This document shows positions 1 to 39,016 of a stretch of DNA of 48,877 nt, piece by piece. The notes under the pieces were generated by a model, which was not told the origin of the DNA, did not search any database, and saw nothing but the letters and a program-made list of their open reading frames with translations. Position 1 is the first letter of the stretch; each line of letters opens with the position of its first letter. Source of the DNA: Welwitschia mirabilis (lineage: Eukaryota); NCBI GenBank assembly GCA_051453625.1, contig JBOZIK010000001.1, positions 28,035,670-28,084,546 on the forward strand, written 5' to 3'. The translations under genes were made by a program, and so were the position numbers.

Positions 1-337
1 TTCCATTTAAGCATAGAGTTATACATGATTTGTTCTTTACATCTTTTATAAAAATGAGGTTCATTCCACTCATAGTCACTGATCCTATGAAGAAAATATT
101 TGCATTAGTTATAGTTCCAATGATGAGGTGTTTTTATAATAACAAGTTAGTTCATAATGTTAGCATACTAAGGAGGGGGATGAGTAGAAGAGATGGCATA
201 AAGATGGTCAATAGCAAATATTTATTCATTTGGATATGAGTCATTTATGGGAATTTCATCATGAGAACAAGAAACTTAAGATAGATGATCTATAATGCTA
301 TTATGTTTTCCATCCTTATCAATGATGGTGAGTTTAA
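1..337 (-). pseudogene. pol remnant of A (RNase H/integrase junction region)
   Basis: Co-linear with the paralogous pol at 31318-31620 and 23730-24050. It resumes at 4111 after the CACTA insertion. Confidence 0.8.
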
Positions 338-640
338 TACTACAAGAAATATAGTCTTTTAAGGCATTTTTAATATGCCTTAAAAGGCCTTAAAAAACAT
401 CTTAAATGCTTTTAAGATGTTTCTTCACAAAATGCCTTATATAGCATCACCTTAAAGGCCTATGTGCTTTTAAGGTGTTTTTAAGGTATTTAAATAAAAA
501 TGTCTTAAAGGGATTTTGAGCCCTTTTTTTCTAGTAAGTGCCTCAAAAGCCTAAAATGACCTTTTAAGGAATTTTACTAAATAAACTCCTCAAAATCCTT
601 TTAAGGCATTTTATCAATTAAATGCCTCAAAAGGTTTAAC
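338..640. repeat. CACTA left TIR and subterminal repeats (TTTTAAGGCATTT / AAATGCCTTAAAA, both orientations)
   Basis: Many degenerate copies, e.g. ttttaaggcattt at about 357 and 599, and aatgcctcaaaa at about 621. Such repeats are typical of CACTA subtermini. Confidence 0.85.
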
Positions 641-1973
641 TTAGAAAATAAAAATTACATAAAATTCTACAGTCTCTCATCTTCTACTTTACCTTCTTTC
701 TCAATGTTTATATCATCATCATTAAAAAAGTCCATTAAATATTCAAACTTACTCAATAGACTATTTGAAGATTCATAAATTTTAGATCTCTTCAGATGTA
801 GATAATCGACTGAATGGAATCAAGGTATCTTAAATAAACTAAATGATGTCAATGAAATAAATTCAATGAAAACTCTAATATATCTTAAATAATGGGTTTT
901 AAAATTTTTATATTTTATTTTTTAACAGTGCTCAACAAATTTTGATTTGTAGTATTTTATTATTTGTCACTGTTCAGTGAAACCAAATGATCATGAAATG
1001 TAATAGGTAATGACGAAAATATTAACCTCAGCATTCCTAATATTCTTATCTTTAATCCAAATTAGCATATAAAATGTTAAATTAAAATAGTATCTCAAGT
1101 CATACTGATAACTAGATAAATAAAATATAATGGTGCAAATTTATAATATGATGATACCTCTTCAAGCTAATGGAAGGCATCATACATACCTCTAAATATT
1201 TTTGAGAAAATTGCATACTAAATCTAAGTACCCATAAAATAGACCTAAATGAAGAAGTTGATCATAATATTATTTGAGAGACCCATTCATATGAAGATAG
1301 TATTATCTATTAGCTAGGCCAAGAAAAATCAGATATGATAGGATGGTAAAGTAGCAATCTAATATTATTAGAATCCAGAGAGAAATCAATTCATCAATGT
1401 ATCAATTAAAGACCAAAAAAATAAGCAGCATGAAATGATATGCAAGACTATAGATTACTAAAGATTTGAATCTATTAAGAAACTCAAGATAAAAAAGCCC
1501 TAGGAATCCTAACTAGCTAAACAAAAACTACAATTTAAGATAGTGCATACATCAAGACAAAATCCTACAGAGGATGAAAATTCTTAAGTTGCTTAAAAAG
1601 AAACAATTGATCATTAGAAGATAATAGTCAAATATAAGATAAAAATTAAATAAAAATGCATTCCTAATGGAATATTCTTTAGAAGTTAAAACAAATAGGC
1701 ATCTATCTAAACTCAAAGATTGAAGACAGTTTTACAATGAAATGTTAAAGAACCAACAAAGTAAATATTCATACATATATTGTATATGATACTGAACACC
1801 TTTTGAAATGTCTCAGCTTGCTATAGTTTAAAGATTATAGTTATCATTATTATTGAAAGAAATAAACCACATGGTTAAAGAAAAATTTACAACTAGAACA
1901 GTGTAAACATGTCAGAGATAAGAAATTCTATTCATAGTGTAAGAAATTTCTTTGGCCTTCGTTTGATCTTCCT

Positions 1974-2370
1974 TGAAGCCCTAGGCCTCTTGTTGCTACA
2001 AGAAGAACATTTGTACTATGTGATATGTCCTACTCGAGTAGGTGTAATTTTTACACATTTTCCATGAAACCATTTTTCACAAATATCACAGCATATCCAA
2101 AACTCATCAGAATCATAATTTTTATCACAAGCACCATACAATGTATTATCATGCTTATCATCTTCCTCTTTAACTACTGAATCATCTTCATCTTTAAGAG
2201 GTGGCAACTTCGGTGTTTTAGCTTGTGATTCAAAAGCTCATAACCCAAATTTGTTCTTGCTACTATTGTTATTAGCAATAGATGACTTTTTCTTTGATTG
2301 TTTCTTTGCAACACCAATCATGATCTCAAAAATAGTTGAAAGGTCATTAATCATGTTAAAGAGCTGCCTC
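1974..2370 (-). pseudogene. Captured 3' fragment of an Alfin-like (AL) PHD-finger gene
   Basis: One frame reads RQLFNMINDLSTIFEIMIGVAKKQSKKKSS...[23 protein letters not shown]...[54 protein letters not shown]. This matches the AL family ([69 protein letters not shown]). Stops at 2238-2240 and 2016-2018, first PHD Cys changed to Tyr, N-terminus missing. Confidence 0.93.
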
Positions 2371-2693
2371 ATGTAATAGTAAGAGGTCATTTAATAAATA
2401 GTAAATGAACTTACACAAACTATACTTTAGAAATAAAAAAAATGCTATCTTAAAAATTTATAATAGTAAGTTAACTTTTATCCTTAAGCATTAATGAGAA
2501 GAGAGGAAATCCTAAAAGACGAGGAAAATACATAGTGAATCATTGGAAATGGCAGCAAATATTTATATTTTGGAATGTCCTCATTATGCTAACTTAAGTT
2601 TCATTATTTCCTTTTGACATCAGAATCTAAATTCAATNNNNNNNNNNGGAAATAATTCACATAAAATCATTTAACGTGAGAAGATGAACTTAC

Positions 2694-3621
2694 ACCAATC
2701 CATAATAGTTCTCAATAGAATGTCTTAGAAATTGTTGAAAAACATGGAGTACATAGTAAGAAGATCCTAGAAGCAGAAAAATAAAATAAAAGAATTTGAA
2801 TGATAAAATAGCTTAAATAGAAGAAATAGTAATTGTGGTTGGTCTTATACATACATACTTCTAAATTCATAGTATTACAGAAAAGACTGAAAATAAAATA
2901 ATATAAGTATCCTAAAGATGAAAAACAAGTGCTGAAATGAAGGTGAAACATATTATTATGAAAAGCAATGGAGATTAAAGATCTCACTTAAAATCATAGA
3001 AATATTTAAGAGATATAGGTAAATCATTCACAAGCGAAGGAGTCCAAGAATAAAACCCTAAAAATGAGGAATAAAGTGATAACACTACATCTCAAATAAA
3101 AAAACACGAAAAAATAACCTGAATAACATAACAGCCGATGAAATTATGAAGATTCATGAGGACAATTAAGCATAGATCATGAATCTTCTCAATGATACTC
3201 TTTTACAGTTTTTTGTAGATGCTAGATAATCTCTATTTCCATTAAATCTATTGAAATGAAATGAAATACAATAAAAAACCCCTCCTCATTTTTAATTAAT
3301 AGTGCATACCAATTCCTAAAAACCATCAAGGCTTCTGAAATACACTCTCCAAGTTCTGGTCTTTATATGCTAATGGGGTGGACCCATCCATCTCCTTTCA
3401 AGAGCTTGGTTTAGACTCCTTTTTAATTTTTAAACATGTTTAGAGGTAGGTACCTTTATTTTTTTTAAATATTTTCTGATAAAACTTGATATTTAATAAA
3501 ATAAACAAAAGAACAATGTCACATTAACAAAAAAAAAACCTTAAAAAGAAAACATCCTAGAGATGCTAAGCAACTATCTCAAACTCTAAATCAACAATGA
3601 GTTGAAGGAAGCTGCGAAGAC
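2694..3621 (-). pseudogene. Candidate second captured gene fragment: four exon-like blocks (3540-3621, 3310-3475, 3119-3247, 2694-2766), product unidentified
   Basis: Each block is preceded on the minus strand by a T-rich tract and YAG (ATGTAG, TATCAG, CAATAG, TTCTAG) and followed by GT (GTTTTT, GTATGC, GTTATT, GTAAGT). Implied introns are 64, 62 and 352 bp. All three joined frames contain stops. Confidence 0.4.
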
Positions 3622-3839
3622 CTACATTTATATAAGTTAAGTAAAGAATGAATCAAGCCTTCAAAGGAATGAAACAAAGCAAATAAAAAAAATAGATAAC
3701 ATCTTTAATAGATCCTTTATTTAAAGAGAATAATTGACTCATTGAAGCAATCATGCCAAATTTTGAAATGCCTCTATGTGCAAGGTTTTATTTTTAGGAA
3801 TGGGCAGAAATTCTTTGTAAAAGTAAACCAAGAATTCAC

Positions 3840-4107
3840 GGCATTTGTTAATTAAACACCTTCAAAGAGGTAGGCTTCTATGGCATTTTTTTAATTAAAC
3901 ACTCTAAAAGGTCAAAAGCATTAATGCATTTTTTATAAATGCCTTCAAAATCTTCAACAAGGGCTTTTAAGGCATTTATTTTAAAAAATGCTTTAAAAAG
4001 ATTATAATTTTTTTCCAAAGGTTTTTATTGAAATGAATGCCTTAAAATTTCCAATAAATAATGCATTTATTTAAATAAACACTTAAAAGCCTCTATTTCT
4101 TATAGTG
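3840..4107. repeat. CACTA right subterminal repeats and TIR
   Basis: Copies such as aaatgccttcaaaa (~3937), cttttaaggcattt (~3964) and aatgccttaaaa (~4036), ending ...ATTTCTTATAGTG. Confidence 0.85.
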
Positions 4108-4110
4108 TAA

Positions 4111-7100
4111 ATGCTTACATGAGAAGCATCCATCTAATAAGTCTAGCATTAGAATCTTTCTTAGTCATAAGATAGCATATTACTACATGACCTATGTAAA
4201 CATTAATGTGGAAGCCAATAAGATAATGTTAAATATAATCAAGGTAAAAGATAATGAAATGCATTTTCTGTTTAGTAATAATGTAGTTGGATTGAGCTTT
4301 GGATAAAGTTTTACTAAGATAGGATAAAACTTTAAAACTAATTTCATATTTTTATCTAAGAAAACCATCCATAGCAATGTTGCTTACACCACACATGATT
4401 TCAAAATCTTTAGTCTAATCGGGACTAATGACAATAGGTTTAGAATAAATGTTTTCCTTAAGTGTATCAAATCCAAGTTAACATGAATTAGTCTAATCAA
4501 TTTTAGTATCTTTTTCGAGTAATGAGTAAAGGGATTTACAAACCTTAACATAATCATGAATAAAACAATAATAGAAACTAGCATAATCAAGGTATGATTT
4601 AATTTATTTAACATTAGTTAAAGGGCTAAGGTTTTTAGTGATATTAACTTTTGTAGGATTCATCTTAATCCCTTCCTTCAAACTATGATGACTTGAAATA
4701 ATTTCATAACGACAAGGAGAAAACATTTTTTCCAACTCAAATGTAGACCACTATCTATACATCAATCCAAGACTTTCTTTAATCTTTCTATGATTTTTTT
4801 AAATGTTTCATCAAATATGGAGAAGTTATCGATAAATATTTTAATAGAATCCTTTATTATATTAAAAAATATCCTCATCATTACTTTTTGAAAAGTTCTT
4901 GTAGTATTTTAAAGTATAAAAGACATTCGTCTAAAGATAAAGATTCCAAAGGATGAGGTAAAGATTGTTTTAGCTTGGTCTTTACTTACTACAAAAACTT
5001 GATTATAGCTACTATACCCATCAATAAAATAATATTAGACATAACCTTAAATTCTATCAAGCACTTGATCAAGAAAGGATGAAAGGCAATGATCCTTTTT
5101 AGTAACCTTACTAAGTTTTCTAAAATTAATGCACATCTTCCATTTCCATATTTTTCTAGAAATACTATCAAAGGGCTAATCCACTCACTATTGGATATAG
5201 CATAGATGAACCCAACATCCATAAGTTTAATAATTTCATCTTTAACTACTTGCTTAAGAATTAAGTTGAGCCTTCATTAGGGTTGCCTAATAGGTTTAGT
5301 ATTATCCTTAAGGTAAATTTTCTATTGGACTATGGAAAGTAGGATGGTAACTAAGTATTTATGAGTCTAATAAAAGGAATCTCTTTAGAAGTTTAGAGTG
5401 AGATCAAGTTAGATTCTTGCTGAAGAATAATAAGATCACTTGTTATTAAAGGATTCTTTAAATTATTAGATAGGAAAATATATTTTAGACCTTTGGGCAA
5501 CTCCTTTAGTTCTAAGTTATAATTTTTAACTATCATCCTATTTATCATGGAAATGATGGACATGAGATGACACTCTTTAAAAAGTTTTCCTTATTGAGAG
5601 AATATGTTGGGTTTCCTTGAAAGATTTCTCATTCTCATATTTAAGACAATGTATTTCGGTCAAGTCATCATATCAAGTTGATTCCTGTAGGATTATCAAT
5701 CTCTCCTCAATTGAATAATGTTGTAAAAACAAGGTTGATTTAAGTTATTCTTCTAAGTTAAACTCATCTTTTGTTTCTTTTTTAGTAGCATCAAAAACTC
5801 AAATGACAAACTTTTTATTGCCTTGATGACATTCCATCATTCCAATTCATTTATCAATGANNNNNNNNNNNNNNNNNNNNNNNNNNNNNNNNNNNNNNNN
5901 NNNNNNNNNNNNNNNNNNNNNNNNNNNNNNNNNNNNNNNNNNNNNNNNNNNNNNNNNNNNTTGCCTTGATGACATTCCATCATTCCAATTCATTTATCAA
6001 TGATATAAGGGTTAGTTACACAAAAGGCTCTTTCTAAGAGTAGTGGATAACCTCCATCATATTCTATCTTAATTATGACTATATCTATGAGATAAAAAGC
6101 TTCCTCTATTTGAATGACTAAGTCCTTGATAATCCGTAAGGCTTTCTTCATTGAAGTATTAGCCAATTCTAAGATAATTCATGTAGGTTCTATTCTATTT
6201 TCCAACCTAAGTCTTTCACATATGTGAATAGGCATGTTGTTTACACTAGCTCCTATGTAAATTAAAGCCTTTTGAATTATTTTATTTCTTTTTAAAGTAA
6301 TGCTCACTGTTGCTGCCTCAGGGTCTTTAAATTTAGAATACTTTTTCATGGCTAAGTTGAAAATAGATTAAGCAAGAAAAAGTTTTCTTAGATTGATACA
6401 TTTTTATTTTCTTCTTACTACATCTTTTCATAACTTAGAATATTTAGGATTTTTTTGCAAGTATTTCCAAAAAGATAAGTTGTTGTTTATCTCTTGCATT
6501 AAGGTTTTCAATTTCTCATCATAAGTAGGATTTGTGTTTAACCTATCAAGCTAAGGAGTAAATATTTTCTTTCCTTTATTTTCTTGTGAATAATTTTTAG
6601 TGGTGGTTTTAACATATGATGTTGATGGCAAGTTATATGAGTCCAAAATTTCTACATTATCTTCTTTATTACTTTATTCATTATTTTTAGAAGTTGAAAC
6701 CTGATTAGTATGAGGTGTTATATCATTTTTACTTCTCATTACTACTTTTAAATCTCTCTTGAATTCATTGGATTGGGTAAAGGTTGAAATGTAAGAGACC
6801 CTTATGGTCTTTGATTTGTGAGCATTGTTTGTCAAAGCAAATTCACTAAGTTTTCACTATTACTATTAGTCATTTCTTACATCTTCTTCAATTCTTCTAT
6901 GGAATCTCTAAGTGATCATTTTGATTTGGTTGAAAATTGAGGTTATTTAGTTGGAAGTTTAAATTTCTAAGTATATTCTTAAAAGGTTTCCATTGTGATT
7001 TTCCACCTAATCTTTGTTGAAATTATTATTGGATTTTAAAGTTAGGTATTCTTTAGTTAAATGCAACACATACCTGCTCAAATATCTTCTCTTTATAAGT

Positions 7101-7900
7101 TGATAATAAGGGACACTTTTTAGTTAGATAAGATATGTATTCACAAATATTACATATTGAAGTTGTTTTTTTCATTTTTTAGTCATTTGAATCAACTATC
7201 AATTGAGTTTACTTCTTTAAAGTGGTATTGAAATCCTTTATTAAGTTGGTTGAATTACCTCGTTCTTATTCTTTCTCATGTTTTACTTCTTTTAAATCTT
7301 TTATGATTTGGCCTATAGTTTAATTTTCCTTAGTGGATTATGGCTAAGTTTGACTTAGTTCTATTAGATTTTCAAGACATTACATGCATCCTGTAAACTA
7401 AGTTAATTAAGTTACCATCACAAGAAAAGTCTACAAGTTATTTATTTTGACTACTCAATCCACTGTATAAATAAGAGACTAATTTGTCTTTACAGAATTC
7501 ATTAATAGGATTAGAATGGATATCTATGATAAAACACTCATATGTTTTGGCATAATCCTCATGTGGTTGTTGCTAAAAGTTGATAACTTCCTTTTTTCTT
7601 TTTCTCATGTTACTTTCACTCAAAAATATTTTAATAAAGACTTATTGTACTTGACTCCATAATTTAGGACTCTTATGTGAAATGGTTTTAAGCCAAAGTT
7701 TTACCTTTTCTCTAAGTGTGACTGAAAAATAATCATGTAACTATGATCATTAATGTATTTCTTATCATTTCCTAAGATAATCATAAATTATTTAATATCA
7801 ACTAGATGTTGAAAATATAAGATAGGCATTAAAATTTCTTAATTCTACATCATTACTAGCAAGTAAATTCAAAGTATTTTGGATTTTACATTTTTTATTA
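4111..7900 (-). pseudogene. gag-PR-RT-RNase H remnant of element A
   Basis: RT motifs IYAISNSEWISPLIV (ORF 4989-5222) and IFIDNFSIF (~4815-4840), protease ALIYIGASVNNMP (~6232-6270), gag region ~7400-7900. Many stops and frameshifts. Confidence 0.85.
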
Positions 7901-8594
7901 GTAATTAACTCTCTAAGATTAACATTTGAATTCAAACTAGAAGTTCCTATCATTATTGATGTATTAAATGAAGTAATTTATTTTTGGTTTTGTGAGGATG
8001 TCAACATAGATGAAGAAGAAATGATGCAATCTACTTCTATCCTATAATTTTAACAACTTTCTTTTACAGAATCTGACTTTAAAATAATAAAAGAAAAAAA
8101 TATTCTTTTTTAATTATTAGAATTTGCATGCCTAGAATGTGCATACCTAGATTTTTATTAAAGTCAAATAATCATTTTCTAATATTTTTTCAATCAAGTT
8201 CCACTCTCTCTGATATTTCATTTTTCTACCAGAATTCATCATGTCCATGCATATCTTAGATATCAAACAAAAACTGAAATAAAAAATAACTAAAAATCAT
8301 CCACCTTTTCATGGGGACAATAAAGAAGAGCATTGTAATCTTTTATTACTACTACTAACAAAAAGAAAATTTATGAAAGAAAATTTAAATTCAAAAATAT
8401 AAATTATAATTTTCAATGTTATGGGGATGATTGAAAGGATGACAGTGAATTTTAAAACTACAAAAAATAAAAAATTTCTGAAATAAACCTGCTAACTACA
8501 ATAAAAAAATATAGTACTATTTTAAATAAATAACCTAAACTAAAATTCAAGGTACTTATCTAGATAGTGACAATCCTCTAACTCCTTATGGCAT

Positions 8595-8611
8595 TTCTCA
8601 GTAATGATCCA
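8595..8611 (-). promoter_or_regulatory. Degenerate PBS of A (tRNA-Asp type, Athila-like)
   Basis: ttctcagtaatgatcca resembles the reverse complement of TGGCGCCGTTGCCGGGGA, differing mostly by transitions, 4 nt from the LTR start. Equivalent sites lie at ~29575-29592 and ~37734-37751. Confidence 0.6.
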
Positions 8612-8615
8612 AAAA

Positions 8616-9000
8616 TGTGGTAGTGTGAATTTATGCAATATTTATGTCCTTAAGAAAAACCTATAAATCACAATACTTTTAGAAGACACATACTAATATA
8701 AACAGAAGTTAATTCAAATGTCATAATCTATTGAAGCCATTAGGATAGAAGTTAGAAATTTTACAAAGTATTTTTTTCTTTCCATTTTAGTAAATAACAA
8801 TGAACAATAATGCAAATAAAATGTAAGATGAATGATGGTAAAATGCAATGGATGCAATGCAATTATAATGAGTTCTATTCGGATTTCAATCCGCCTATCA
8901 CAAGAATTAGCTCTTTATAATTAAAATCAATTAGAAAAAGTTCATCACTTATTCTTAAACAACATGAACTATAACATATGCCAAAAAGAATATGGGTAAT
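8616..9000 (-). repeat. 5' LTR of A, left part (interrupted by B)
   Basis: Starts TGTGGTAGTG (compare TGTTGCAGTG at 37755) and is homologous to the first ~385 bp of the intact LTRs. It continues at 39017. Confidence 0.8.
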
Positions 9001-9934
9001 TATTTTAGTGTGAATTTGTGCAATCTTTAAGTTTTTTAGGTGAACTTATAAATCACAATACTTGCATAAAATACACATTAGTATAGATGGGAGATAACCT
9101 AAATATCATAATTCATTGAAGGCACTAAGCTTAGAGTTATAAAATTGATTTCACAAAGAGTATTTTTGGTCATTTATCTTTTAATAAATTAATGTAAACA
9201 AATATAAAAATATAATGCAATAATGAATGAAGATGAAATGTAATAAATAACATGTGAAGGAGATGAGTTATATTTGGATCCTAATTCTTCTATCATAATA
9301 ACTATCTCTCTATAATTCAAATCAATTAAGAAGATTTCATTGCTTATTGCTAACCAATGCAAACTATGAAATATCCCAAATAGAATATATAATGTAAAAG
9401 TGAAGAAAAGTAAGGGTATTTATAGTTTTACATTGAAGTTCTAGAAGTTCAATCATAGAAGTTAGAGAAGAAACCCTAGTATCCCAAATGTGTCACATGA
9501 CCTCATTACAAAGATAAATCTTTCCATTCATAGAAAAATAGATGTCATCTTGACTATTATGAAGATTAACATGAGGACGTTACCTCATGTTAAAAGGTAC
9601 TTCATCAGCTTTAGGTCCCATGGTTAGATTCATAACCTTCATCCATGTCAGTAGTGCTATCATCTTACTTGTCATGGGGATGACAGAGGGGATGATAGGA
9701 TTCTTCATCTTCAATCTTAAAAGTAAATCAATCCTCTATGTAGTACATCCTTCTTCCAAACTATGAAGTGTCATAGTAAGCCTGAGAAGCTTCCAAATAT
9801 GCTAAGAATCACATGTTTTAGTGATCATCCTATTAGTTCCCTATAATCATTAATATTGCATCTAAGCCTATATAAAAGTTTTGTAAAGCCACTTAAAATA
9901 CACCATCAAATTTCTACAAATTGGCATTGCAACA
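9001..9934 (-). repeat. 3' LTR of B (about 320-bp internal deletion near 9395)
   Basis: Ends ...GGCATTGCAACA and is followed by tagcctcatacttag (reverse complement of a decayed Athila-type CTAAGTGTGGGGG PPT). Length 934 bp versus 1257 bp for its partner. Confidence 0.8.
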
Positions 9935-10142
9935 TAGCCTCATACTTAGCCTTATCAATCCCTAATAAAGTAAGTGATCAACTATATTATGAGCTAATAT
10001 GACTAAGATAAATAGAAACTAGAAAAATGTAAATTGAGTTCAATTTAATCATGTAGAAATAGATATTTTAAACTAATTAACTAGGACTTATACTACCATA
10101 TTCATAAGCCTTCTATTTAAGCACATTATTATAGAATGAATA

Positions 10143-10560
10143 TGTAACATCCAATAATTTCTAATGTTGAAAAAAATCAAATCTTCCTTTTAATTCTTAG
10201 CTCTGATACTAAAATGTAAGACCCTAAATTTTATAGTTGAAACTTTAAGACTTACTTTATTACTTTGATACAAAAATGTGAAACCCTAAATTTCATAGTT
10301 GAAACTTCAAGACTTACTTTATTGCTCTGATACCAAAATGAAACATCCTGAAATTTACATCTTTAAAAATCTTCAAACTTACTAAATAGCTCTGATACTA
10401 AAATGTAATGACTTAAAATTCTACCATTTTAAAACTTGCTTTGAAGCTCTGATACCAAAATGTAAGGGCCTAAAAATTTTACCATTGAAAAATCAAACAC
10501 GCTCTAATACCAAAATGTAATGCCCCAAAGTCTGATAGTTGAAAAAAAAATTGAACTTAC
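10143..10560 (-). repeat. Tandem array of LTR-terminus + tRNA-iMet PBS units (6 PBS, 7 att-like termini)
   Basis: GCTCTGATACCA-like motifs (reverse complement TGGTATCAGAGC) at 10200, 10262, 10324, 10389, 10446 and 10501, each followed by AAA and TG(T)AA..CC. PBS-to-PBS periods are 62, 62, 65, 57 and 55 bp. Confidence 0.92.
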
Positions 10561-10744
10561 AAATGGTATTCAAAATATAAAACCTCTCGATATAATTAAA
10601 TCAAAAGCTAAAAGTCTTAATATTAGCCTTATATAATCATATAAGTTGCATTTTAATTTAATCATTAAATAAAATTACTTAAGTTATTTAGACTATTAAA
10701 TGTTATTCATTCATTAAATGGCACTAGTGATTTAAAACATTTGC

Positions 10745-11180
10745 AAATGATAAAATAGAATGTGTTTTTGATTGAAAACATCTCATTTTTACCTTAAAGG
10801 GCATGGATTAAACTTAGATCCATGAAACAATGTTTTGGAAGTTACATTCGAGCCTTTTTTACATTTTTAAAGAAAATAAGAATTTAAAACAGTAAACCAA
10901 AATGTTGGAAAATGATAAAACGGACTACATTTTTGACTGGAAACACCTAGGTTTTACCCTTAAGAGTATGGATTAAGCTTAGATCTATGAACATATATTT
11001 TAAAAGTTATTTTCAAGCTTTTTTTAGATTTTTAAAGAAAATAAGAATTTGAAATAGTAAACGAACATTGGAAAATGATAAAATAGACTATGTTTTTGAC
11101 TGGAAATACCTAGGTTTTACCCTAAAGGGTACAGATTAAGCTCATTTTTGTAAAAAATACGATTTAAAAGTTACATTTGA
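10745..11180. repeat. About 165-bp tandem repeat (roughly 2.7 copies) in the LTR of E
   Basis: The unit aaatgataaaa(c/t)(a/g)ga...tttttga(c/t)tg...ttttaccctaaaggg...ggattaagct starts at 10745, 10910 and 11073. Confidence 0.85.
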
Positions 11181-22866: not shown

Positions 22867-25800
22867 GGATTGAGATTTATGAATGAGTTGACGATGTAAA
22901 GCATGAGTACATTTTTCATCTAAATGATCAAGTTGGACTAATCAAGCTTTAAAATTATCATGTAAGTTTACAAGGTTAAGTTAATGGGTGGATTGATAAG
23001 AATTATCGCAAACATCAACTAGTAAAACACAAATTGTTTGTACACAAGTTCATATGGTGAGAAACTTAGAGAGTTATGCTAAGTAATATGATAAGCCCAA
23101 AGAACTTCATTAAGTTTAAAACACCATGTTTTCTTATTAATAGAGACTAATTTTTATAGCATCTTCTTAATTATTTGATTTGCATTTTTGGTTTGGCCAT
23201 TACTTTGAGAATGATAGGAATATGGAGTTTGATGTTTAATGCCGATAGATAAAAGAAGTTTTTGAAAAAGGTGGTTAATGAAATAAGTTCCTTGATCATA
23301 ATGATAATTTGTAAAAAATCAAAACACTAAAAGATATGAGTTTGAACAAAGTTGCAAATGGTTCAGGTATCAATTTTTGTTATAGAAACAACCTCTACCC
23401 ACTTAGTAACATAATCAACAGTGATAAGGATATAATTTTTGTCATAAAAAGGTGGTATAATAGGGCCTATAAAATTAATTCCATAATAATCAAAAGGTTT
23501 ATACTCAAGTATAGGTTTAATGGGCATATTATGATAATGCGTTAGGCTAATATAACATTGACATGAATTACACCTTCTAGCAAAGTCATATGAATTCTTA
23601 AAAAGAGTATGTCAATAAAAACTAGAGTGAATAATTTTCATGACAGCCTTTTAACTAGTAAAGTATCCCTTACATAATCCATCATAGCAAATTTTTAATA
23701 TTTTTAATCTTTTCTAGTTAGGTACATACTTATGAATGATTTAATCTTTACAATGTCTATATAGATGGGGTTCATTCCACTCATAGTTACCGATCCTATG
23801 AAGAAAATTTTTACATTGGCTATAGTTCTAATGCTAGAGAATTTTCATAGTTAAAAGATAGTTCATAATATCAACATACTAAGGAACAGGATGAGTAGAT
23901 GAAATAGTGTAAAATTGTTTAACCACAAAGAATTATTCATTGGAGAAAGAATCATTAATGAAAACTTCATCATGAGAGCAAGAAAGTTGAGATAGATGAT
24001 TAGCAATACTTTTATGTTTTCCAACCTTATCAATGATGTTAAGACTAAATTCTTGCATGAAAAGGATTCACCTAGTAACTCTAGCATTATATTTTTTTTT
24101 TGTTTTAGTCATAAAATAGTGGATGGCAGCCTTATCTGTGTAAACATTGAGGTGAAAATCAAGAAGGTAATGTTAAAGATAATCCAGACAAGAAGTAATG
24201 GCAAGCATTTCTCTCTCAGTAGTAGTATAACTGGATTAGGTTGGAATAAAATTTTACTAAAATAAGATATTACTTTGAAATCATTTTTATACTATTGGCC
24301 AAGAACCCCTCTATAGCAATGTTGCTTCAATCACACATAAGTTCAAAATATTTACTCCAATTGGGACATGTGATAACAAGTATGAAAGATATGTTTTCTT
24401 TGAGAGTTACAAAAGAAAATTAACATGATTCATGCTAATCGAATTTAACATCTTTTTCAAGTAAGAAGTGAGAGGTTTACAAATTTTAACATAATCATGA
24501 ATAAAACATTAATAAAAATTATTATAACTAAGGAAAGATTTAACTTCTTTGACATTAGTTGGAGGTCTAAGGTTTTTAATGATATTAACTTTTTTGGAAT
24601 CCATTCTAATTCCTTCTTTTGAAATGTGATCTCCTAAGAAAATTCCATGATTAACAAGGAAGGATTTCTTTTTCTAACTCAAGTGTAAGCCATTCTCAAT
24701 ACATTGATCTAGGACTTTCTATAATCTCTTTATGATTTATTCAAAAGTACCACTAAATATGGAGAAGTCATCCATAAAGATTTTAATATAATCTTCTATT
24801 ATATTAGAAAATATTCGCATCATGGCTTATTAAAAGGTTCTAGGAGCATTGCAAAGTCCAAAGGGTATTTTCCTAAAAGAAAAGGTTCCAAAAGATAAGG
24901 TAAAAGTGGTTTTAGCCTAGTCTTCACTTGCAATACAAATTTGATTATAGTCACTATACCCATCAAGAAAATAATAGTAGGTATAACCTTAGATTCTATC
25001 AAGTTCTTAATTAAGAAAGGGTAAAGGGTAATGATCCTTTTTAGTGATCTCATTAATTTTTCAAAAATTTATGTACATTATCCATTTTCCGTCCTTCTTT
25101 GGAACTACTATTAAAGGACTAACCCAATCACTATCAGATATGGCATGTATGATTTTTGCATCCATAAGTTTAATGATTTCATCTTTAATAATTTTTTTAA
25201 GGGTTAAATTTATTCTTGTTTAGGACTACTTAATAGTCTTAGCATTATCTTCAAGGTAAATTTTATGTTGAACTATGGAAAGAGGAATGGTAGCTAAGTC
25301 TTTATGTATTTAAGCAAATGAATTTTCTTTCAAAGTTAAGAGGGAGATCAAAAAGAATTCTTATTGAAGAGTAAAAAGGTCATTGATTATCATAGATTTT
25401 ATTTTATTTTCAAATATAATAACATATTTTAATCCTTAGGGTAATTTCTTATGTTCAAGGCTATGATTTTGAGCTATTATTCCATCTGTCGTGGGGACAA
25501 TAGATGTGGGATGCCACTTTGCAAGAATTTATTTTACCAAATACAAATATTGAGTTTATTCCTAGTTAGTATGTTCTTCATCCTTAGACTCAAGATAATG
25601 TGTTTTAGTGGGGTTATTATATAAAAATTGTTCATGTAGCATGATTAATCTCTCCTCAATTGGTTAATGTTGTAAAAACATAGTTAGTTTTAGTTCTTCT
25701 TCAAGGTTAAACTTAGTTTCTATGTTCTTTTTAATAGCATCAAAATCTATAATGGTAATTTGTCTATTGCCAAAATAATATCTCATCATACTAGATCATG

Positions 25801-26696
25801 TGTTAATGATACAATAGGAAATTGCATAAAAGTCTCTTTCTAAAAGGAGTGGATAATCTCCATCATGTTTTGTCTCAATGATAACAACATCTATGGGGTA
25901 AAAATCTTCCTTAATTTGAATAAATAAGTTCTTCATAATTCTTAATGGTTTTTTTATTATGTTATTAGCCAATTTCAAGATGGTTTGTATATGTTCTATT
26001 CTATTTTTCAATCTAAATCTCTCAGATCTATGGAGAGGTATGATGTTTACACTTGCTTATATGTCAATTAAAGCTTTTCGAATTCTTTTGTTTCCTTCTA
26101 AGGTAATACTCATAGTTACAGCTCTAGAGTCTTTGAATTTAGGGCACTTTTACATGACTCAGTTAGAAATATATTGAGCAACTTTACTAGGAATGTTATG
26201 TTTTTGCTTTTTTTTTTTTTTTTTACTAAGTCCTTCCATAACTTAGAATATTTAAGATTTCCTTGCAAGAATTTCCAAAAATCCAAGTTGATGTTTACCT
26301 CTTGCATCAAAGTTTTCAAATGGTCATCAAAGGTAAGATTTATATTTAATTAAACAAGTTAAGAAGTAGATGATTTCTTCACTTTGTTTTCTTATGAGGC
26401 TTTAGTAAGAGATGTTAGTGAAAGATTTATGAATCCAATATTTCTACATCATCCTATTCATTTATTTCATTATTTTTAGAAGTTAAAACCCAATAGTTTA
26501 GAGGTATTGTATCATTTCCACTTCAAGTTACTATTTTTAAGTCTTTATTAACTTTATTTGGATTAGATAAAGGTTGAGACGTAAGAGACTCTTATGGTAT
26601 TTGATTGGAAAGCATTATTTGGTGGAGCACATTTACTGAGTTCCCAATGTTTTTATTAGTTTTCTCTTACACTTTTCTCATCTCTTCTATGGATTC
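22867..26696 (-). pseudogene. pol remnant of C (PR-RT-RH-INT order)
   Basis: RT AISDSDWVSPLIVVPKKDGKW...KKDHYPLPFL...YYFLDGYSDYNQI (~24940-25145) and IFMDDFSIF (~24755-24780); RNase H ELMCD (~24330-24345); protease ~26035-26075. Confidence 0.88.
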
Positions 26697-26796
26697 NNNN
26701 NNNNNNNNNNNNNNNNNNNNNNNNNNNNNNNNNNNNNNNNNNNNNNNNNNNNNNNNNNNNNNNNNNNNNNNNNNNNNNNNNNNNNNNNNNNNNNNN

Positions 26797-28750
26797 TACA
26801 ATGGGCAGCTGTATAAAAAGATCTTTCTAGAAGTAGTGAATATTCTCCATCATGTTATATCTCAATTATGACAACATCAATGGGATAAAAGGCTTTCTCA
26901 ATTTGGATAACTAGATCTTTAATAATTCCTAGAGGTCTTTTGATTAAAATATCAGCTAATCCCAAGATGATAGGTGTAGGTTTAAATCTACTTTCTAATC
27001 TAAGTCTTTTATATATATGAAGAGGCATGATGTTTACACTTAGACCTCTGTCAATTAAAGCCTTTCTAATTCTTTTATTTCTTTCTAAGATAACATTCAT
27101 AGTTATAGCTCCAAGATCTTTAAATTTAGGAATTTTTTATATAACTAAGTTGGAAAGAGATTGGACAAGAAAAACTTTACTAGGAATGATATGTTTTTCT
27201 TTCTTCTTACTAAATTTTTTCATAACCTAGAATATTTAGGGTTTTCTTATAAGACTTTCCAAAAGAATAGGTTGATGTTGACTTTTTCATCAAGGATTTT
27301 AGATGTTCATCAAATGTAATATTTGTATTCAATCTATTAAGCCATGGAGTGGATGGTTTCTTCCTTTTGTTTTATTTTAAATTATTTTTAATGGAGGCTT
27401 TAACAGGTGATGTAGATGGAAGGTTATAAGAGTCTAAGATTTCCTCATCATCTTCCTCATTTGATTCATTTTGATAAGAATTTGAAACCTCATGGATAGA
27501 AGGTATTGTCTTCTTTTCACTTCTTGTCATAAATTTTAAATCTCTTCTAACTTCATTTGGATTAGACATTGGTTAAGAAGTAAGAAACCCTTATCATCTT
27601 TGGTTGGAAAGAATTATTTATTGAAGAACACTTACTAGGTTCTTAATGTTGCTATTGGTTTTTTCTTACAATTTTTTCATTTTCTTAATGAATGCCCTAA
27701 GGAATCATTTAGATTTTATTCAAAATTCAATTGAAAGGTGGAATTTTTAAATATATTTTCAAATGGTTTCCATTAAGGTTGTCCATTTGATCTTTGTTGA
27801 AATTGTGATTAGTTCTTAAAGTCAGGTGTTATTTGGTTGAAGGCACACAAGTCTTCAAACATCTTTTCTTTGAAAGTTGGTAACAAGGAATATTCTTTTT
27901 TTGGATGGCATTCATATTCATAAATTTCACAATTAGAAGTTGAGGTTTCATTCTTAACTACTTTTACATCAACTATCATTTAAGTGTACTTCTCCAAAGT
28001 AGTAGTAAAATATTTCATCAAGTTGATTGAATTCTTCCTTTCTTATTCCTTATCATGCCTCAATTCTTTTAAATCTTTTATAATTTGTCCTATAGTATGT
28101 TTTTCCTTATTGGGCTTAGGCTAAGTTTAACTTATTTCTATTAAATTATCTAGCACACTCCATGCATCATCTAAGCTTGAGTTCAACAAGTTGCCTCTAT
28201 AAGTAAAGTCTATAAGTTATTTGGTTGAGGTATTTAATCCACTATAAAAATAATCTACTAGCTTTTCTTTATGAAATTCATCAATAGGATTGGAATGGCT
28301 AGCTATTATAAAAGATTCATAGGCTGTTGCATAATTCTCATAAGGTTGGTGTTAAAAGTTGGTTACTTTTTTTCTTCTTTTTCTCATGCAACCTTCACTC
28401 AAAAATCATTTAATAAATACTTCTTAAAATTGACTTTAATATTTAAGAATTTTATGTGAAATGGTTTTAAGCCAAATTTTTGCACTTCCTCTGAGTGTGA
28501 CTAGAAAAATAATCATATCAGTATAGTAACTATATGTTTCTTCCCATTTCCTAAGATAAGTACAACTTATTCAATCCCAGCCAAATGTTGGAAAGGATTT
28601 TCCTTAGGATTCATTAAAAAAGTTAGATATGCACTTAAATATCTTAATTCTGCATCATCTTCAGGAGGTAAATCAAAGAGATTTTAAATTTCACATTTTC
28701 TATTGGCAGTTAAATCTCTAAGGGGAATGTTTGCATTTGAGGAAATGTTC
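26797..28750 (-). pseudogene. gag-protease remnant within C (second, diverged protease copy)
   Basis: ORF 26855-27100 reads KALIDRGLSVNIMPL...DLVIQIEKAFYPIDVVII. Gag-like sequence at ~28100-28700. Confidence 0.8.
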
Positions 28751-31312: not shown

Positions 31313-31317
31313 TGGTC

Positions 31318-34300
31318 TTTGCATCTTCTATAAATATGGGATTTATTCTACTCATAGTTATTAATCCTTTAGAGAAACAATTTGCATTGGTTATGGTTTC
31401 AATGCTAAGGTGTTTTCATAGTAATAAAGTAGTATATGATATCATCATAATAAGTAGTAAAATGATTAGAAAAGATAACATAAAGTTGCTCAATTTCAAA
31501 GAGTTATTCATTTGGAAAAGAATCATTTATGGGAAGTTCATCATGAGAACAAGAAAGTTGAGATAGATGATTAATAACACTATTATGTTTTCCAACCTTA
31601 TCAATAATGATGAGATTGAATTTTTTCATGAAAATAAATCAACTAATAAGTCTAACACTAAAATCTTTCTTAGTCATAAGAGAGCAAATGGCTACATGAT
31701 CTATATAAACATTAATGTGGAAGCCAAGAAGATGATGTTAAAGATGATCAAGGAAAAAAATGATGGCAAGGAGTTCTCTCTTAGTAGTGGTATATTTAGA
31801 TTGGACTTAGAACAAAGTTTTAGTAAGATGGAATATAACTTTTAAATCATTTCCATATTTTTGGTCAAAAACCCCACCTATAGCAGTGTTAGTTACATCA
31901 CACCTAAGTTCAAAATTCTTGTTCTAATCAAGATCCGTGATAATATGTTTAGAATAAATGTTTTTCTTAAGTGTATCAAATGTAAGTTTACATGACTTAT
32001 TCTAATTAAATCTAGCATCTTTTTCATGTAAGAATTAAAATAGTTTACGAATTTTAGCATAACTATGAATAAAATAATGATAGAAAATAACATGATCAAA
32101 AAATGATCTAACTTATTTGATATTAATTAGAGGGCTAAATTTTTTAATGATATGAACTTTATAGGATTCATTTCAATCCATTCCTTTAAAATATGATGTT
32201 CTAAAATAATTCCATGATTAATAAGAAGATAACTATTTTTCCAATTCAAATATAAGACAATTTCTATACATCAATACAAAACTTTCTCTAATCTTTCTAT
32301 GGTTTAGTTAAAATTTTCACCAAATATGGAGACATCATCCATAAAAATTTTAATAAAATACTCTATCATGTTAGAAACAATCCATATCATTACTTGTTAA
32401 AAAGTTATAGTGGCATTGCAAAGTCCAAAGAACATTCATGTAAAAGCAAAGGTTCCAAAGGATGAGGTAAAAGTCATTTTGGCTTAGTCTTCACTTGATA
32501 TGCAAATTTGGTGATAGCCATTATACCCATTAAGAAAATAATAGTAGCCATTACTTTGGATTCTATCAAGTGCTTGATCAAGAAAGGGTAAAGGGTAATG
32601 ATCCTTTTTAATGACCTCATTAAGTTTTCTAAAATCAATGCACATTCTCTATTTTCCCACTTCTTTGAAACTACTATCAAAGGGCTAATCCACTCACTAT
32701 TAGATATAGCAATAAGTTTAATGATTTCATCTTTAACTATTTACTTAAGGACTGGGTTGAGCCTTCTTTGAGGTTACCTAATAGGTTTAGCATTATCTTT
32801 AAGGTAAATATGATTTTAAAATATAAAAAGAGGAATGGCAGCTAAGTCTTTATGATTCCAAGCAAAGGCATCTTCTTTAGAAGTTAAAAGTGCAATCAAT
32901 TTTGACTCTTATTAACAAGTAATAACATCACTTATTATCAAGGATTTCTACAGATTGTCAAATAGAAAAATATATTTTAAACCTTGGAGTAGTTTCTTTA
33001 GTTCTAGTTTGAGATTTTTAGTTGTCATCCCATCTATCGTAGAAATGACACACATAGGATGACACTATAGAAAAAGCTTTTCTATAGAGTTAATATGTTG
33101 AATTTCTTCATAGTTGATGTAATTCTCATCCTCAAAATTAAGATAGTATATTTTAGTAGGTCATAATATAAACCTAGTTCATGTAGCATGATTAATATCT
33201 TCTTAGCTAGTCAATGTTCTAAAAAAAACTTGGTTTCAATTCCTCTTCTAAGTTAAGATTACTTCCTATGTCCTTTTTAGTAGCATTAAAAACTCAAATG
33301 GTAAATGTTTTATTACCTGTGTAACACTTCATCATCCTAGTTCGTGTGCTAATAACACAGTGTACAGTTACAAAAAAGATAAGTATATAACCTCCATCAT
33401 CTTCCACCTCAATGATAACCACATATATGGGGTAAAAGTCTTCCTTAATTTGGATGACTAAGTACTTGATAATCAATAATGGTTTCTTAATTAAAGTATC
33501 ATCTAATTCTAAGATAATTTATGTAGGTTATATTCTATTTTCCAACTCAAGTCTCTTACATATATGTAAAGGCATGATGTTTACACTAGCTCTTATGTCA
33601 ATTAAAGATTTTTGAATCCTTTTTTTCCCTTACAAGGTGACACTCACAGTTGTGGCTCTAGGATCTTTAAATTTAGGGCACTTTTTCATGACTAAGTTGG
33701 AAATAGATTGAGTAAGAAAAACTTTTCTAGGAATGGTATATTTTTATTTTCTTCTCACTAGGTCCTTCCATAACTTAGAATATTTATGGTGTTTTTGCAC
33801 GATTTTACAAAAAGATAAGTTGATGTTCACCTCTTGCATTAGGGTTTTCAAGTATTCATCAAAGGTAGGATTTGTATTTAACTAATTAAGCCAAGAAGTA
33901 GATGACTTCTTTGCATTATTTTCTTGTGAAGAATTATTAGTGGAGGTTTTAGTATGTGGTATTGATGGAAAGTTATATGAGTCCAAAATTTCTACATCAT
34001 CTTTTTCATTCACTCCAAAATTTCTACATCATCTTTTTCATTCACGTAATTCTCTTTAGAAGTTGAAATCTCATGGATAGGAGGTGTTGTATCATTTCCA
34101 CTTCTTGTTACTACTTTCAAATCTTTCTTAACTTCATTTGGATTGGGTAAAGGTTGAAATGCAAAATACCCTTATGATCATTAATTAGCAAGCATTGTTT
34201 ATTGGATCACATTCACTAAGTTTTCAATGTTACTATTAGTTTTTTCTTGCATCTTCCTCATTTCTTTTATAGATTCTCTAAGTGGATGATTCTGATTGTG

Positions 34301-35330
34301 TTGAAAATTATCTTGAAAGTTGGAATTTCTGAATCTATTTTCAAAAGGTTTTCATTATGATTTTCTAGCTATTCTTTTTTGAAATTATAATTAGATTTTA
34401 AAGTTAGGTATTCTTTAGTTAAAAGCATAAATATCCTCAAACATCCTCTTCTTGTAAGTTGGTAACAAAGGACACTCTTTAGTTGAATCAGAGTTGTCTT
34501 CATAAATTTGACAAGTCAAAGTTAAGTTTTAATCCTTTAATACTTTTGCATCAACTATCATTTGTGTCTTCTCTAACGTGGTACTGAAATATTTAATCAA
34601 GTTTGTTGAGTTACCTCTCTCTTCTTCCTTGTCATGTTTAATCTACTTTAAGTCTTTTATGTTTGAGTTATGGTTTGATTTTATTTAGTAGGTTTAGGCC
34701 AAATTTGAATTGTTTCTACTCTATTTTCCAACATACTCCATTCTTATTTCAAGACTAAGTTTAATAAGTTACCTCCATAAGAAAAATCTACAAGTTGTTT
34801 AGTTTGATAATTCAATTTACTATAGAAATAATTGACTAATACTTTCTTATGGAATTCATCAATAGGGTTGGAATGGCTATCTATAATAAAATGTTTATAA
34901 GATGTAACATAATCCTTGTGAGGCTGTTGTTAAAAATTTATTGCTTCTTTTCTTCTTTTTCTTATGGAATTTTCCCATAAAAACATTTTGATAAATACTT
35001 TTTGCACTTAACTTGAATATTTAAGACTCTTATGTGGAATAGTTTTAAGCTAAATTTTTACCCTTTCTCTAAGTGTAACTAGAAAAATAATTATGTAGGT
35101 ATGATCACTAATATGTTTCTTCCCATTCCTTGAGATAAGCACAAGTTGTTCAATATCAGCTAAATGTTGGAAAGGGTCCTCCTCAGGTTCCCCTAAAAAA
35201 GTTGGATATGCACTCAAATTTTGTAACTCTACATCATCATCAGGGGGTAAATCAAATGGATATTGGATTTAACATTTTTAATTAGTGATTAAATCTCTAA
35301 GAGTAAGATTTGCATTTGTAGTAAAAGTTC
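31318..35330 (-). pseudogene. gag-pol remnant of B
   Basis: Gag YPTFLGEPEEDPFQHL (~35162-35210), protease LIDIRASVNIMP (~33570-33606), RT ~32300-32780 and RNase H ~31620-31910. Confidence 0.85.
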
Positions 35331-36094
35331 CTATTATAATTAGAGTACTAGATGAAGCAACTTACTTTTGTTTTTGTGATAATTTTGACATATTAGAAGA
35401 AGAAATAACATGATCCTCTTCTATGCTATATTTTTCTTTTGTAAAATCAAATTCTAAAATAATAAAGGTAGAAAAATCTTCTTCTTGAATTCTTGAAATT
35501 TGTATACCTAGAGTGTACATATTTGGATTTTATTCGTAGTCGAATAATCCTTCTCTGTTGTTTTCTTCAATCAAGTTCTACTCTCTCTAATATTTTGTGT
35601 TTCTACCAGAATTCATCTTGTTTCTACATATTTAGAGAACAAATAAAAATGAAAACAAAAAATAATAGACTATCATCCTCTTAGTCATGGAAATGACAGA
35701 GAGGACAATGATCACAGAAATAGAAAATGAAACTTAGATAAAAGTTATGAAAAGTAAAAATTTAGACTATCATCCAAGCCATCATGGGGACAATAGATCA
35801 GATGATAGTATTTTTATTATAAATTAAAAAAATAGAAAGAAAATTTAAGAAAAAAGGAATTACACTTAAAAATTTAGAACTATCATTCTAAGTGTCATTG
35901 GAATGACAAAGAGGATAATAGAGATGCTAAAAACTATGAAAAAGAAATATTGCTAAAATAAACCTACTGAAGCTATGCTAAAAATACAATGATANNNNNN
36001 NNNNNNNNNNNNNNNNNNNNNNNNNNNNNNNNNNNNNNNNNNNNNNNNNNNNNNNNNNNNNNNNNNNNNNNNNNNNNNNNNNNNNNNNNNNNNN

Positions 36095-37754: not shown

Positions 37755-39011
37755 TGTTGCAGTGTGAATTCTACAGTTCCTAAGTCCTTTAGGTAAACTT
37801 GTAAATCATAATACTTTCATAAAAAAACACCTTTATAGACAGGAGTTAACTCAAATGTGATAATTTGATAAAGGAATTAGGCTTAGAGTTAGAGAATTAA
37901 TTTTACAAATAGTATTTCTGGTTTTTAATCTTTTAATAAATGAAAGTAAACAAATGTGAAAATACAAAGCAATGATGAATAAAGATGAAATGTAATAGAT
38001 GAAATGTGAATGAGATAAGTTCTATTTGAATTCTAATTCTCTTGTCATAAGAAATAGATCTCTATAATTTAAATCAATTAAGAAGAGTTTATTACTTATT
38101 TCTAACCAATGTAAACTATGAGATACATGAAATAGAATATGAAATGTAGATATGAGATGGGGATACAATAAAAATGCAAATATAAAATAATAGGATAAAC
38201 TTTAATAAAGGTTATCCTTATGACCTAAATAAATTTTAGAATTATTCCTAACCTATAATCAACTTAAATCAAAGGGATATAAAGAGAATTATAGTAAAAA
38301 GAGTAATTGAATTTGATCATTAAACATTTACATCCATTTAAAACGAACTACTAGCACCTCAATGGAGGATACTTAGCCCAACACTAAGGTAAATTTCTCT
38401 TTGTAGCTATCAGATGGACTTCTTATCCTTCAGTCTTTTATTATAAGAACATCGAGTATAAAAGATGAAAACAGAAGTAAAGAAAAGAAATGGTATTTAT
38501 ATTTTTACATTAAAGTTCTAGAAGCTTAACCCTAAAAGTTGAAGAAGAAACCCTAAAAGCCTAAATGGGTCACATGACTCCATTACAAAGAAAAATATTT
38601 CCATCCATAGAAAAATAGCTATTATCCTAACTATTGTGGGGATGATCATGGGGATATAACTTCATGTTAAAAGGTACTTCATTAGCTTTAGGTCCTATAA
38701 TTAACCCATAGCCTTCATCCATATTAGTAGTTCTATCGTCCTGCCTATTGTAAGGATGAAAGAAGGGGTAAGAGGCTTCTTCATCTTTAATATTAAAGAA
38801 AAATAAGTCTTCTACATAGTACAATCCTTCTTCCAAAGTATGAAGTATTAGAATAAGCCTGATAAGTGTCCAAATATGCTAATAATCATATGTTTCAATG
38901 ATCATCCTATTAGTTCTCCATAATAATCAATATTACATCCAAAACTATATAAAATTCCTTCAAAAGCACTCAAAATACATCATTAAATTCTCATAAATGG
39001 GCATCACAACA
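37755..39011 (-). repeat. 5' LTR of B
   Basis: TGTTGCAGTG...CATCACAACA, 1257 bp, preceded by the PBS remnant cttaacaatgacacta. Confidence 0.88.
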
Positions 39012-39016
39012 ATAAT

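Follow-up and report, generated by a model that had tools for sequence, protein, structure and literature searches.

Tandem U5-end/tRNA-iMet PBS junctions at the U5 end of an LTR with Del/Tekay-like termini in Welwitschia mirabilis

In the standard model of LTR element replication, minus-strand strong-stop DNA starts beside the tRNA-bearing PBS and gives its U5 to both LTRs. Voronin and Pathak reportedly worked in 2004 with retroviral vectors containing two PBSs, where more than one PBS is said to be able to start reverse transcription and the PBS used to set the content of the LTRs. Among chromoviruses, the U3 att of Del elements is described in the accessible part of PMC4029996 as close to TGTAACACCC, with bases 3, 6, 9, and 10 conserved, while the U5 att of type A carries GGG at -8 to -10. 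The available sections of PMC7215508 name TGGTATCAGAGC as a conserved tRNA-complementary PBS and consider that the tandem arrays of Cassandra arise by recombination. A rearranged LTR/PBS border is known from Culex cqgypsy_1, where the border holds a tRNA dimer together with a duplication of 26 nt of the LTR, according to the accessible part of PMC3286476. Tandem arrays of PBSs within an LTR were not found described in the openly accessible article texts searched.

The array reported here is located in a stretch of 48,877 nucleotides from Welwitschia mirabilis, which was analysed as a whole and is called the window. The window stems from a short-read assembly, is interrupted by 14 N runs, has a GC content of 25.6%, and shows duplicates flanking gaps. 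Most of the window is made up of an old repeat family with four or five copies at 61-83% identity (4100-10123, 19470-22168, 23745-28480, 31316-35500, and 38000-42740), and an insertion, element E, is found in one of them. By eye, short ORFs of the old family resemble gypsy-type RT, protease, and integrase; a Pfam search with eight window ORFs that appeared RT-, protease-, or integrase-like gave no matches (0/8). The host repeat flanks E and has a continuous paralog, with 9759-10123 resembling 20317-20682 and 16273-16690 resembling 20698-21107, and the paralogous site at about 20680-20700 is uninterrupted. The insertion of E is supported because this paralogous site is empty. Moreover, the two terminal 10-mers of E form an inverted repeat with 8 of 10 positions in agreement, and the orientation of the PBSs places the array at the U5 end of a minus-strand LTR. 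The features of the element are as follows:

10138-10142, no strand: left TSD GAATA, read directly and the same as at 16272-16276
10143-16271, minus strand: element E with TG...CA ends, 5' TGTCACGTCC at 16271 and 3' ...GGATGTTACA at 10143
10736-11142, no strand: 165-bp tandem repeat in 2.5 copies (TRF, 80% matches), deeper inside the LTR
11111-12801, minus strand: LTR body copy A from self-BLAST, with about 80% identity to copy B
12909-14842, minus strand: LTR body copy B from self-BLAST, either the other LTR or an internal duplication in tandem
16262-16271, minus strand: U3-side terminus TGTCACGTCC, forming an imperfect inverted repeat with the U5 terminus; positions 3, 6, 9, and 10 are Del-like
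16272-16276, no strand: right TSD GAATA, adjoining the U3-side end of E

Four N gaps lie within E (12809-12908, 13368-13490, 13974-14073, and 15220-16180). The LTR body copies A and B abut across the first of these, a gap of 100 N, and share 79.5-90.2% identity over four blocks in self-BLAST. E is either a full LTR retrotransposon with its middle hidden in gaps or a solo LTR that contains an internal duplication of 1.8 kb. The first-pass annotation assumed a full element, with a second copy of the array predicted within the gap 12809-12908 and followed by a seventh PBS. No N-free ORF of at least 120 aa was found in the gap-interrupted E, which is either non-autonomous or has its coding part within the gaps. 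A second tandem repeat of the LTR (36 bp, 2.7 copies, TRF) is located at 12635-12736, and the contig breaks at 12808 and 12909 are at or beside tandem repeats of the LTR. Further, the sequences on either side of the 100-N gap 13974-14073 (13759-13973 and 14074-14280) are 86.5% identical, suggestive of redundancy in the assembly or of a local duplication.

On the minus strand, 10143-10580 consists of six repeats of a spacer of 30-47 nt, an LTR end that closes with TTACA, TTT as linker, and a tRNA-iMet PBS, followed by a seventh LTR end, GGATGTTACA (plus strand 10143-10152), that closes the array and adjoins the 5-bp TSD GAATA. Unit length ranges from 55 to 72 bp. The first-pass annotation of this DNA had proposed tandem units of U5 terminus, linker, and tRNA-iMet PBS at the U5 end of an LTR, closing at the TSD; this anatomy holds, and all coordinates and sequences given there for the array were confirmed. 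The units are listed here with the 10-mer at each LTR end as read on the plus strand, and with the mismatches of each PBS 12-mer on the minus strand:

10143-10214, minus strand: unit 1, the outermost, with terminus GGATGTTACA at 10143-10152 (plus-strand 10-mer TGTAACATCC at 10143), a 47-nt spacer, PBS TAGTATCAGAGC at 10200-10211 (one mismatch), and linker TTT at 10212-10214
10215-10276, minus strand: unit 2, with att GGGTCTTACA (plus-strand 10-mer TGTAAGACCC at 10215), a 37-nt spacer, decayed PBS TTGTATCAAAGT at 10262-10273 (three mismatches), and TTT
10277-10338, minus strand: unit 3, with att GGGTTTCACA (plus-strand 10-mer TGTGAAACCC at 10277), a 37-nt spacer with 0.91 identity to unit 2, a perfect PBS at 10324-10335 (no mismatch), and TTT
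10339-10403, minus strand: unit 4, with att GGATGTTTCA (plus-strand 10-mer TGAAACATCC at 10339), a 40-nt spacer, PBS TAGTATCAGAGC at 10389-10400 (one mismatch), and TTT
10404-10460, minus strand: unit 5, with att AGTCATTACA (plus-strand 10-mer TGTAATGACT at 10404), a 32-nt spacer, a perfect PBS at 10446-10457 (no mismatch), and TTT
10461-10515, minus strand: unit 6, with att GGCCCTTACA (plus-strand 10-mer TGTAAGGGCC at 10461), a 30-nt spacer, PBS TGGTATTAGAGC at 10501-10512 (one mismatch), and TTT
10516-10565, minus strand: unit 7, the innermost clear LTR-end motif GGGCATTACA (plus-strand 10-mer TGTAATGCCC at 10516) with its own spacer, missing in many other copies
10560-10590, minus strand: candidate eighth PBS/LTR-end junction, decayed, plus strand ...GGTATTCAAAATATAAAACC..., noted by eye and from skip joints in reads

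The perfect PBS TGGTATCAGAGC is present in only two of the six units, three have one mismatch and one has three, while TTT directly precedes the PBS in all six. A decayed eighth junction is probably present at about 10560-10590, judged by eye and from the skip joints described below; the unit profile search of the window gave no match there. That search returned exactly six units with E values from 4e-15 to 1e-10 (next best 0.64); no others came up anywhere in the window, the second copy of the LTR body included. Matches to the PBS with at most one mismatch number five in the window, every one inside the array, against 0.10 expected, and none of 100 shuffles reached five; likewise, five matches to the 20-mer TTACATTTTGGTATCAGAGC stand against 0.01 expected. 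At three mismatches, PBS matches outside the array are at chance level (25 found, 22.9 expected). One PBS-like sequence with three mismatches, TGGTATGAGATG at 14939-14950 on the minus strand, stands right after ...CTTTCA inside E and is not above chance. TRF reports the array with a period of 62 (3.3 copies, 82% matches) and with a period of 65 (2.0 copies).

The termini have a Del/Tekay-like form. The U3-side end TGTCACGTCC agrees with the U3 att TGTAACACCC of Del/Tekay at 7 of 10 positions, among them 3, 6, 9, and 10, as far as that att is described in the accessible part of PMC4029996. At -8 to -10 of the U5 att, GGG is found in three of the seven ends, GGA in two, and GGC and AGT in one each, to be compared with the GGG described for type A in the same part of PMC4029996; GG at -10/-9 is shared by six of the seven LTR ends. 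The PBS is complementary to tRNA-Met, TGGTATCAGAGC, as in Del/Tekay chromoviruses. The earlier suggestion of Del/Tekay-like LTR ends thereby agrees with the att description in the available sections of PMC4029996.

Conservation is unevenly distributed over the units. Pairwise identity is 0.86 for the 12-nt PBS (0.92 leaving out the near-duplicate unit), 1.0 for the linker TTT, and 0.67 for the ten-base LTR end, whereas the spacers reach 0.58-0.62 with many indels and are near random. Five of the seven LTR ends close with TTACA and the other two deviate from it by a single change, so that a conserved core of 20 nt emerges, TTACA-TTT-PBS. This bears out the repeat-spacer architecture that the first-pass annotation had recognised, with PBS and linker better conserved than the spacers (0.86-0.92 and 1.0 versus 0.58-0.62), and PBS and att have not diverged as fast as the spacers; equally fast divergence is what the same annotation had named as speaking against its reading. 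Its remark that only two spacers are near-duplicates is equally correct: these are U2 and U3 (0.91), followed by U3-U4 at 0.72. Apart from U2-U3, pairs of units, taken as spacer plus att, range from 0.53 to 0.72 against a shuffled null with a mean of 0.51 and a 95th percentile of 0.58. Compared to the canonical form, PBS and linker are changed at 6 of 90 positions, and five of these six changes are G>A or C>T. A decay of about 10% per copy is implied by the roughly 80% identity of the LTR body copies A and B, and because the rate of change in PBS and linker matches this decay, the PBSs were probably intact when E inserted, at which time the spacers were probably already divergent.

Other copies in the same species were approached through sequencing reads. 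A run search gave 14 rows from five studies under two organism labels, and three contig sets and one raw-read run (X15, sampled at about 1 in 100 of its reads) were aligned to 9900-10735 at 80% likeness. All units are covered by raw reads of the same species. Summed depth in X15 is 82-830 on the array and 582-1828 on the adjoining LTR, and it differs about tenfold between units, so that not every copy has the full array. Most aligned reads (11450 of 14055) match only partly, and some may originate at single junctions in related families. Joints within X15 reads either go back by 61 nt (30 reads) or 179 nt (20 reads) or skip 59 nt (31 reads) or 79 nt (19 reads), and they indicate other unit orders and numbers elsewhere in the genome, including copies without unit 7. 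The latter is bypassed by skip joints of 59-67 nt leading from 10498/10506 to 10564/10568, to which the 59-nt skip in 31 X15 reads belongs. The possibility, raised beforehand, that the array is unique to this locus is thus contradicted by reads with joints in other unit orders. Among the pieces listed, no read or contig spans the entire stretch, and the unit order rests on one short-read contig of a family with many copies.

The reads also shed light on the decay of individual units. At 10341, the majority of reads has T instead of A (362/674), which makes the att of unit 4 (10339) identical to that of unit 1; at 10413, C replaces T (90/126) and the att of unit 5 (10404) becomes TGTAATGACC; at 10272, C replaces A (113/158) and restores one base of the weak PBS of unit 2. 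The first-pass annotation had stated that all seven att 10-mers differ. This is true of the assembled sequence, but by read majority the ends at 10143 and 10339 were the same before decay.

Analogues were found in metagenome contigs, which were scanned for three exact PBSs spaced 42-72 nt apart. The scan returned 12 loci; the same three-PBS pattern had no matches in prokaryote genomes, and a two-PBS pattern had none in viral contigs. In five of the 12 loci (L003, L005, L008, L009, and L011), each unit consists of CA, 0-3 nt, and a PBS. The remaining seven (L001, L002, L004, L006, L007, L010, and L012) have no CA before the PBS and were set aside as not LTR-like. No similarity was found between E and the fetched metagenome loci, and no LTR pairs were found in L001, L002, L003, L009, L010, and L012.

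The most informative analogue is L005, a young element whose LTRs (1-425 and 3603-4027) are 98.6% identical. It represents a family other than that of E, and its 5' flank ends with the contig, which places a TSD outside the view. Each of its LTRs reads ...CCCCAACA, AT, PBS, 30 nt, AAT, PBS, and a further 27 nt ending in CCAACA, i.e. contains two internal PBS units. The 5' LTR is followed by AAT and a third PBS with internal sequence, and the 3' LTR by an unrelated flank. This structure is the product expected from reverse transcription begun at the third PBS, and since the LTRs match the product of third-PBS priming, we regard L005 as decisive for the mechanism. The mechanistic point of the first-pass annotation, that the choice of PBS fixes the U5 end, is borne out by exactly such a product. 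L005 is plant DNA, with a TIR domain (E value 2.8e-30) and an LRR receptor-like gene alongside. Further, L008 and L009 have three and five perfect PBS units, respectively, following a common LTR end ...GTGACA-GG, so the number of units differs between copies.

Several additional observations were made on these contigs. The L005 element of about 4 kb (1-4027) has one sense-strand ORF of at least 100 aa (3296-3622), which enters the 3' LTR; this LTR abuts or overlaps the TIR-domain ORF in the region 3810-9120, beside the LRR receptor-like gene, and the element may be an insertion in a resistance-gene cluster. In L003, the region 1-330 has units of 64-65 bp with a PBS, upstream of a G-rich tract and an LTR start TGTAACACCC, and at 1340-1400 a 50-nt piece, TGTCACACCCC...GGGGCATGACA, joins both LTR ends back to back; after this piece come GG, a PBS, and an ORF resembling a protease. 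Three of the loci set aside share a 21-bp minisatellite whose unit includes the exact 12-nt PBS motif, with no CA before it (L001 14-109, L004 2650-2745, and L006 4681-4776). The units of L009 (2086-2400) and L008 (reverse strand, 655-1000) are 56-57 nt long, each with GCTCTTCACCA about 16 nt upstream of the PBS, and this motif could, by eye, pair with the PBS as a hairpin.

The observations to be explained are the anatomy of the array, its TSD, its conservation pattern, the occurrence of similar arrays at other places in the genome, and the analogous structure of L005. We favour, with moderate confidence, an origin by repeated duplication of the U5-end/PBS junction combined with priming at a downstream PBS. 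The unit would consist of a U5 end of about 45 nt with TTACA as its last bases, a 3-nt linker that integrase would trim, and the 12-nt PBS, and this junction would have been duplicated again and again in a replicating lineage. The most likely cause would be template switching by RT: the enzyme would jump from about 45 nt within U5 to a point just past a PBS, either backwards on the same RNA or onto another, co-packaged one. Priming downstream would then draw the upstream units into the U5 of both LTRs, and the end of a copy would be the LTR-end motif just before the PBS used. For E, this would mean priming beyond unit 1, at a seventh PBS, which would leave six PBSs inside the LTR and the seventh LTR end at the TSD.

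The core would be kept while spacers drift if each unit works, or worked until shortly before insertion, as a junction for priming and integration: a PBS in use would be rewritten from the tRNA, and an LTR end in use would have to satisfy the integrase. Continued use of the inner PBSs might explain the conserved core, and we favour this over recent capture from working junctions, to which we nevertheless give substantial weight: conservation may reflect such recent capture instead of selection, and only weak purifying selection is expected on each PBS because the PBSs are redundant. A more far-reaching version, in which some plant LTR retrotransposons possess a natural multi-PBS leader with every unit live, the LTR boundary sliding with the PBS used, LTRs accreting units outward, and PBSs being rewritten from tRNA, is a tentative proposition that we hold to be rather doubtful. 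If it were true, the surplus of PBSs could protect the element from PBS mutation or from PBS-directed silencing by tRNA fragments.

Other histories of the array have to be weighed against duplication with downstream priming. The array could be a patchwork in which U5-end/PBS junctions of diverged subfamilies were captured via template switching among co-packaged RNAs, each core being intact since it functioned in its source, and the inner PBSs now being passengers out of use. Intact cores beside spacers that are near random to each other would suit such a capture, as would the up to tenfold difference in depth, as if unit types differed in genomic abundance, and the presence of two further decayed units (the innermost junction at about 10560-10590 and PBS 2 with its three mismatches). 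We still consider it unlikely, given that most spacer pairs exceed the shuffled null with neighbours tending to be most alike (U2-U3 0.91, U3-U4 0.72), which fits duplication in one lineage, and that the six PBSs show no decay gradient from inner to outer. A simple minisatellite, in which slippage or unequal crossing-over would have expanded a 60-bp unit of a dead LTR at this locus once E had inserted, with no replicative meaning, is largely refuted and hardly credible, even though TRF sees a plain tandem repeat and U2/U3 (0.91) are a recent duplication. Decay should then strike PBS and spacers equally, but 6 changes in 90 positions contrast with a difference of about 40% with indels; moreover, the genome has other arrays with other unit orders, and the young element L005 has the same unit number in both LTRs. 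That the array is a chimera assembled from junction reads of many family copies might be suspected because the short-read assembly is broken by 14 N runs and has gap-flanking duplicates, and because the family is highly repeated. However, the units differ outside the 20-nt core and would not collapse at usual k, every bin is covered by four runs from three studies under two organism labels, tandem joints exist in the reads themselves, and L005, L008, and L009 demonstrate that the arrangement is real elsewhere, which makes an artefact highly improbable.

Two functional explanations are likewise very unlikely. According to the first-pass annotation, the different LTR ends might be maintained as a keyring of att sites, allowing several helper integrases to integrate a non-autonomous element. 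The ten-base ends do vary at -4 to -8, no coding sequence was seen in E, and each PBS would give its own end under the standard model and as in L005. Yet TTACA, in two cases with one change, recurs at all ends, and GG stands at -10/-9 in six of the seven; together this is a single pattern resembling type A of Del in the accessible part of PMC4029996, and the variable positions are largely those that this part of the source describes as less conserved within Del elements. The ends at 10143 and 10339 were identical before decay. The keyring proposal is not supported: all seven ends fit one att type, part of their differences is decay, and nothing hints at several integrases. A leader RNA with six to eight PBSs might otherwise act as a decoy or sponge that titrates tRNA-iMet, 3' tRNA fragments, or RT, with many intact PBS copies on one transcript-sense strand; targeting of the PBS by tRNA fragments is raised in the discussion of a cranberry preprint (10.1101/2021.07.15.452536, as far as accessible). 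The conserved linker and TTACA would be superfluous for a sponge, and the array folds no better as RNA than shuffled sequences (-77.7 kcal/mol, z -0.58, 25 of 100 shuffles as good), i.e. without special structure, so that this role appears scarcely plausible.

The arrangement is real and recurrent. If duplication with downstream priming is its true origin, it would be a natural case of what the two-PBS retroviral vectors reportedly built, where the choice of priming site decides the LTR end. It would offer a simple route for LTRs to lengthen and gain tandem repeats, and in a large plant genome the use of priming sites could be read from such arrays. In such families, LTR borders can be misplaced by annotation tools built on the assumption of a single PBS immediately outside the 5' LTR. 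Moreover, with a 20-nt core standing out from near-random spacers, nature provides a clean test of which LTR-end bases are constrained.

Compared with the two-PBS retroviral vectors, which are artificial and have two sites, E is natural and has six or more, in tandem and each with its own LTR end. Its junctions resemble the canonical 5' LTR/PBS junction of Del/Tekay, with ends of the form TGTAACACCC and GGG..TTACA, few nt from CA to the tRNA-iMet PBS, and long LTRs, as described in the accessible part of PMC4029996; unlike Del/Tekay, which has one junction just outside the 5' LTR in that description, E has six inside the LTR and a seventh end at the terminus. Tandem repeats in cranberry LTRs and UTRs are similarly short, with 2-8 or so copies inside or beside LTRs, but in contrast to E they are not reported with a PBS or LTR terminus in the available portion of 10.1101/2021.07.15.452536. 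Cassandra TRIM arrays share the head-to-tail repetition of LTR...TGGTATCAGAGC modules, yet their units are whole elements of LTR plus internal domain with several hundred bp, unlike the 55-72 bp junction units within one LTR of E (PMC7215508, accessible sections). Gypsy and Ty3 likewise have more than one tRNA-complementary site per genomic RNA, but according to the available part of PMC1635307 the second one is located close to the RNA's 3' end and binds a different portion of the tRNA, without being a tandem copy. Finally, Culex cqgypsy_1 resembles E in its rearranged LTR/PBS border with duplicated LTR-end sequence, while it differs, in the part of PMC3286476 consulted, by a single insertion of full tRNA-like sequences where E has an array of PBSs.
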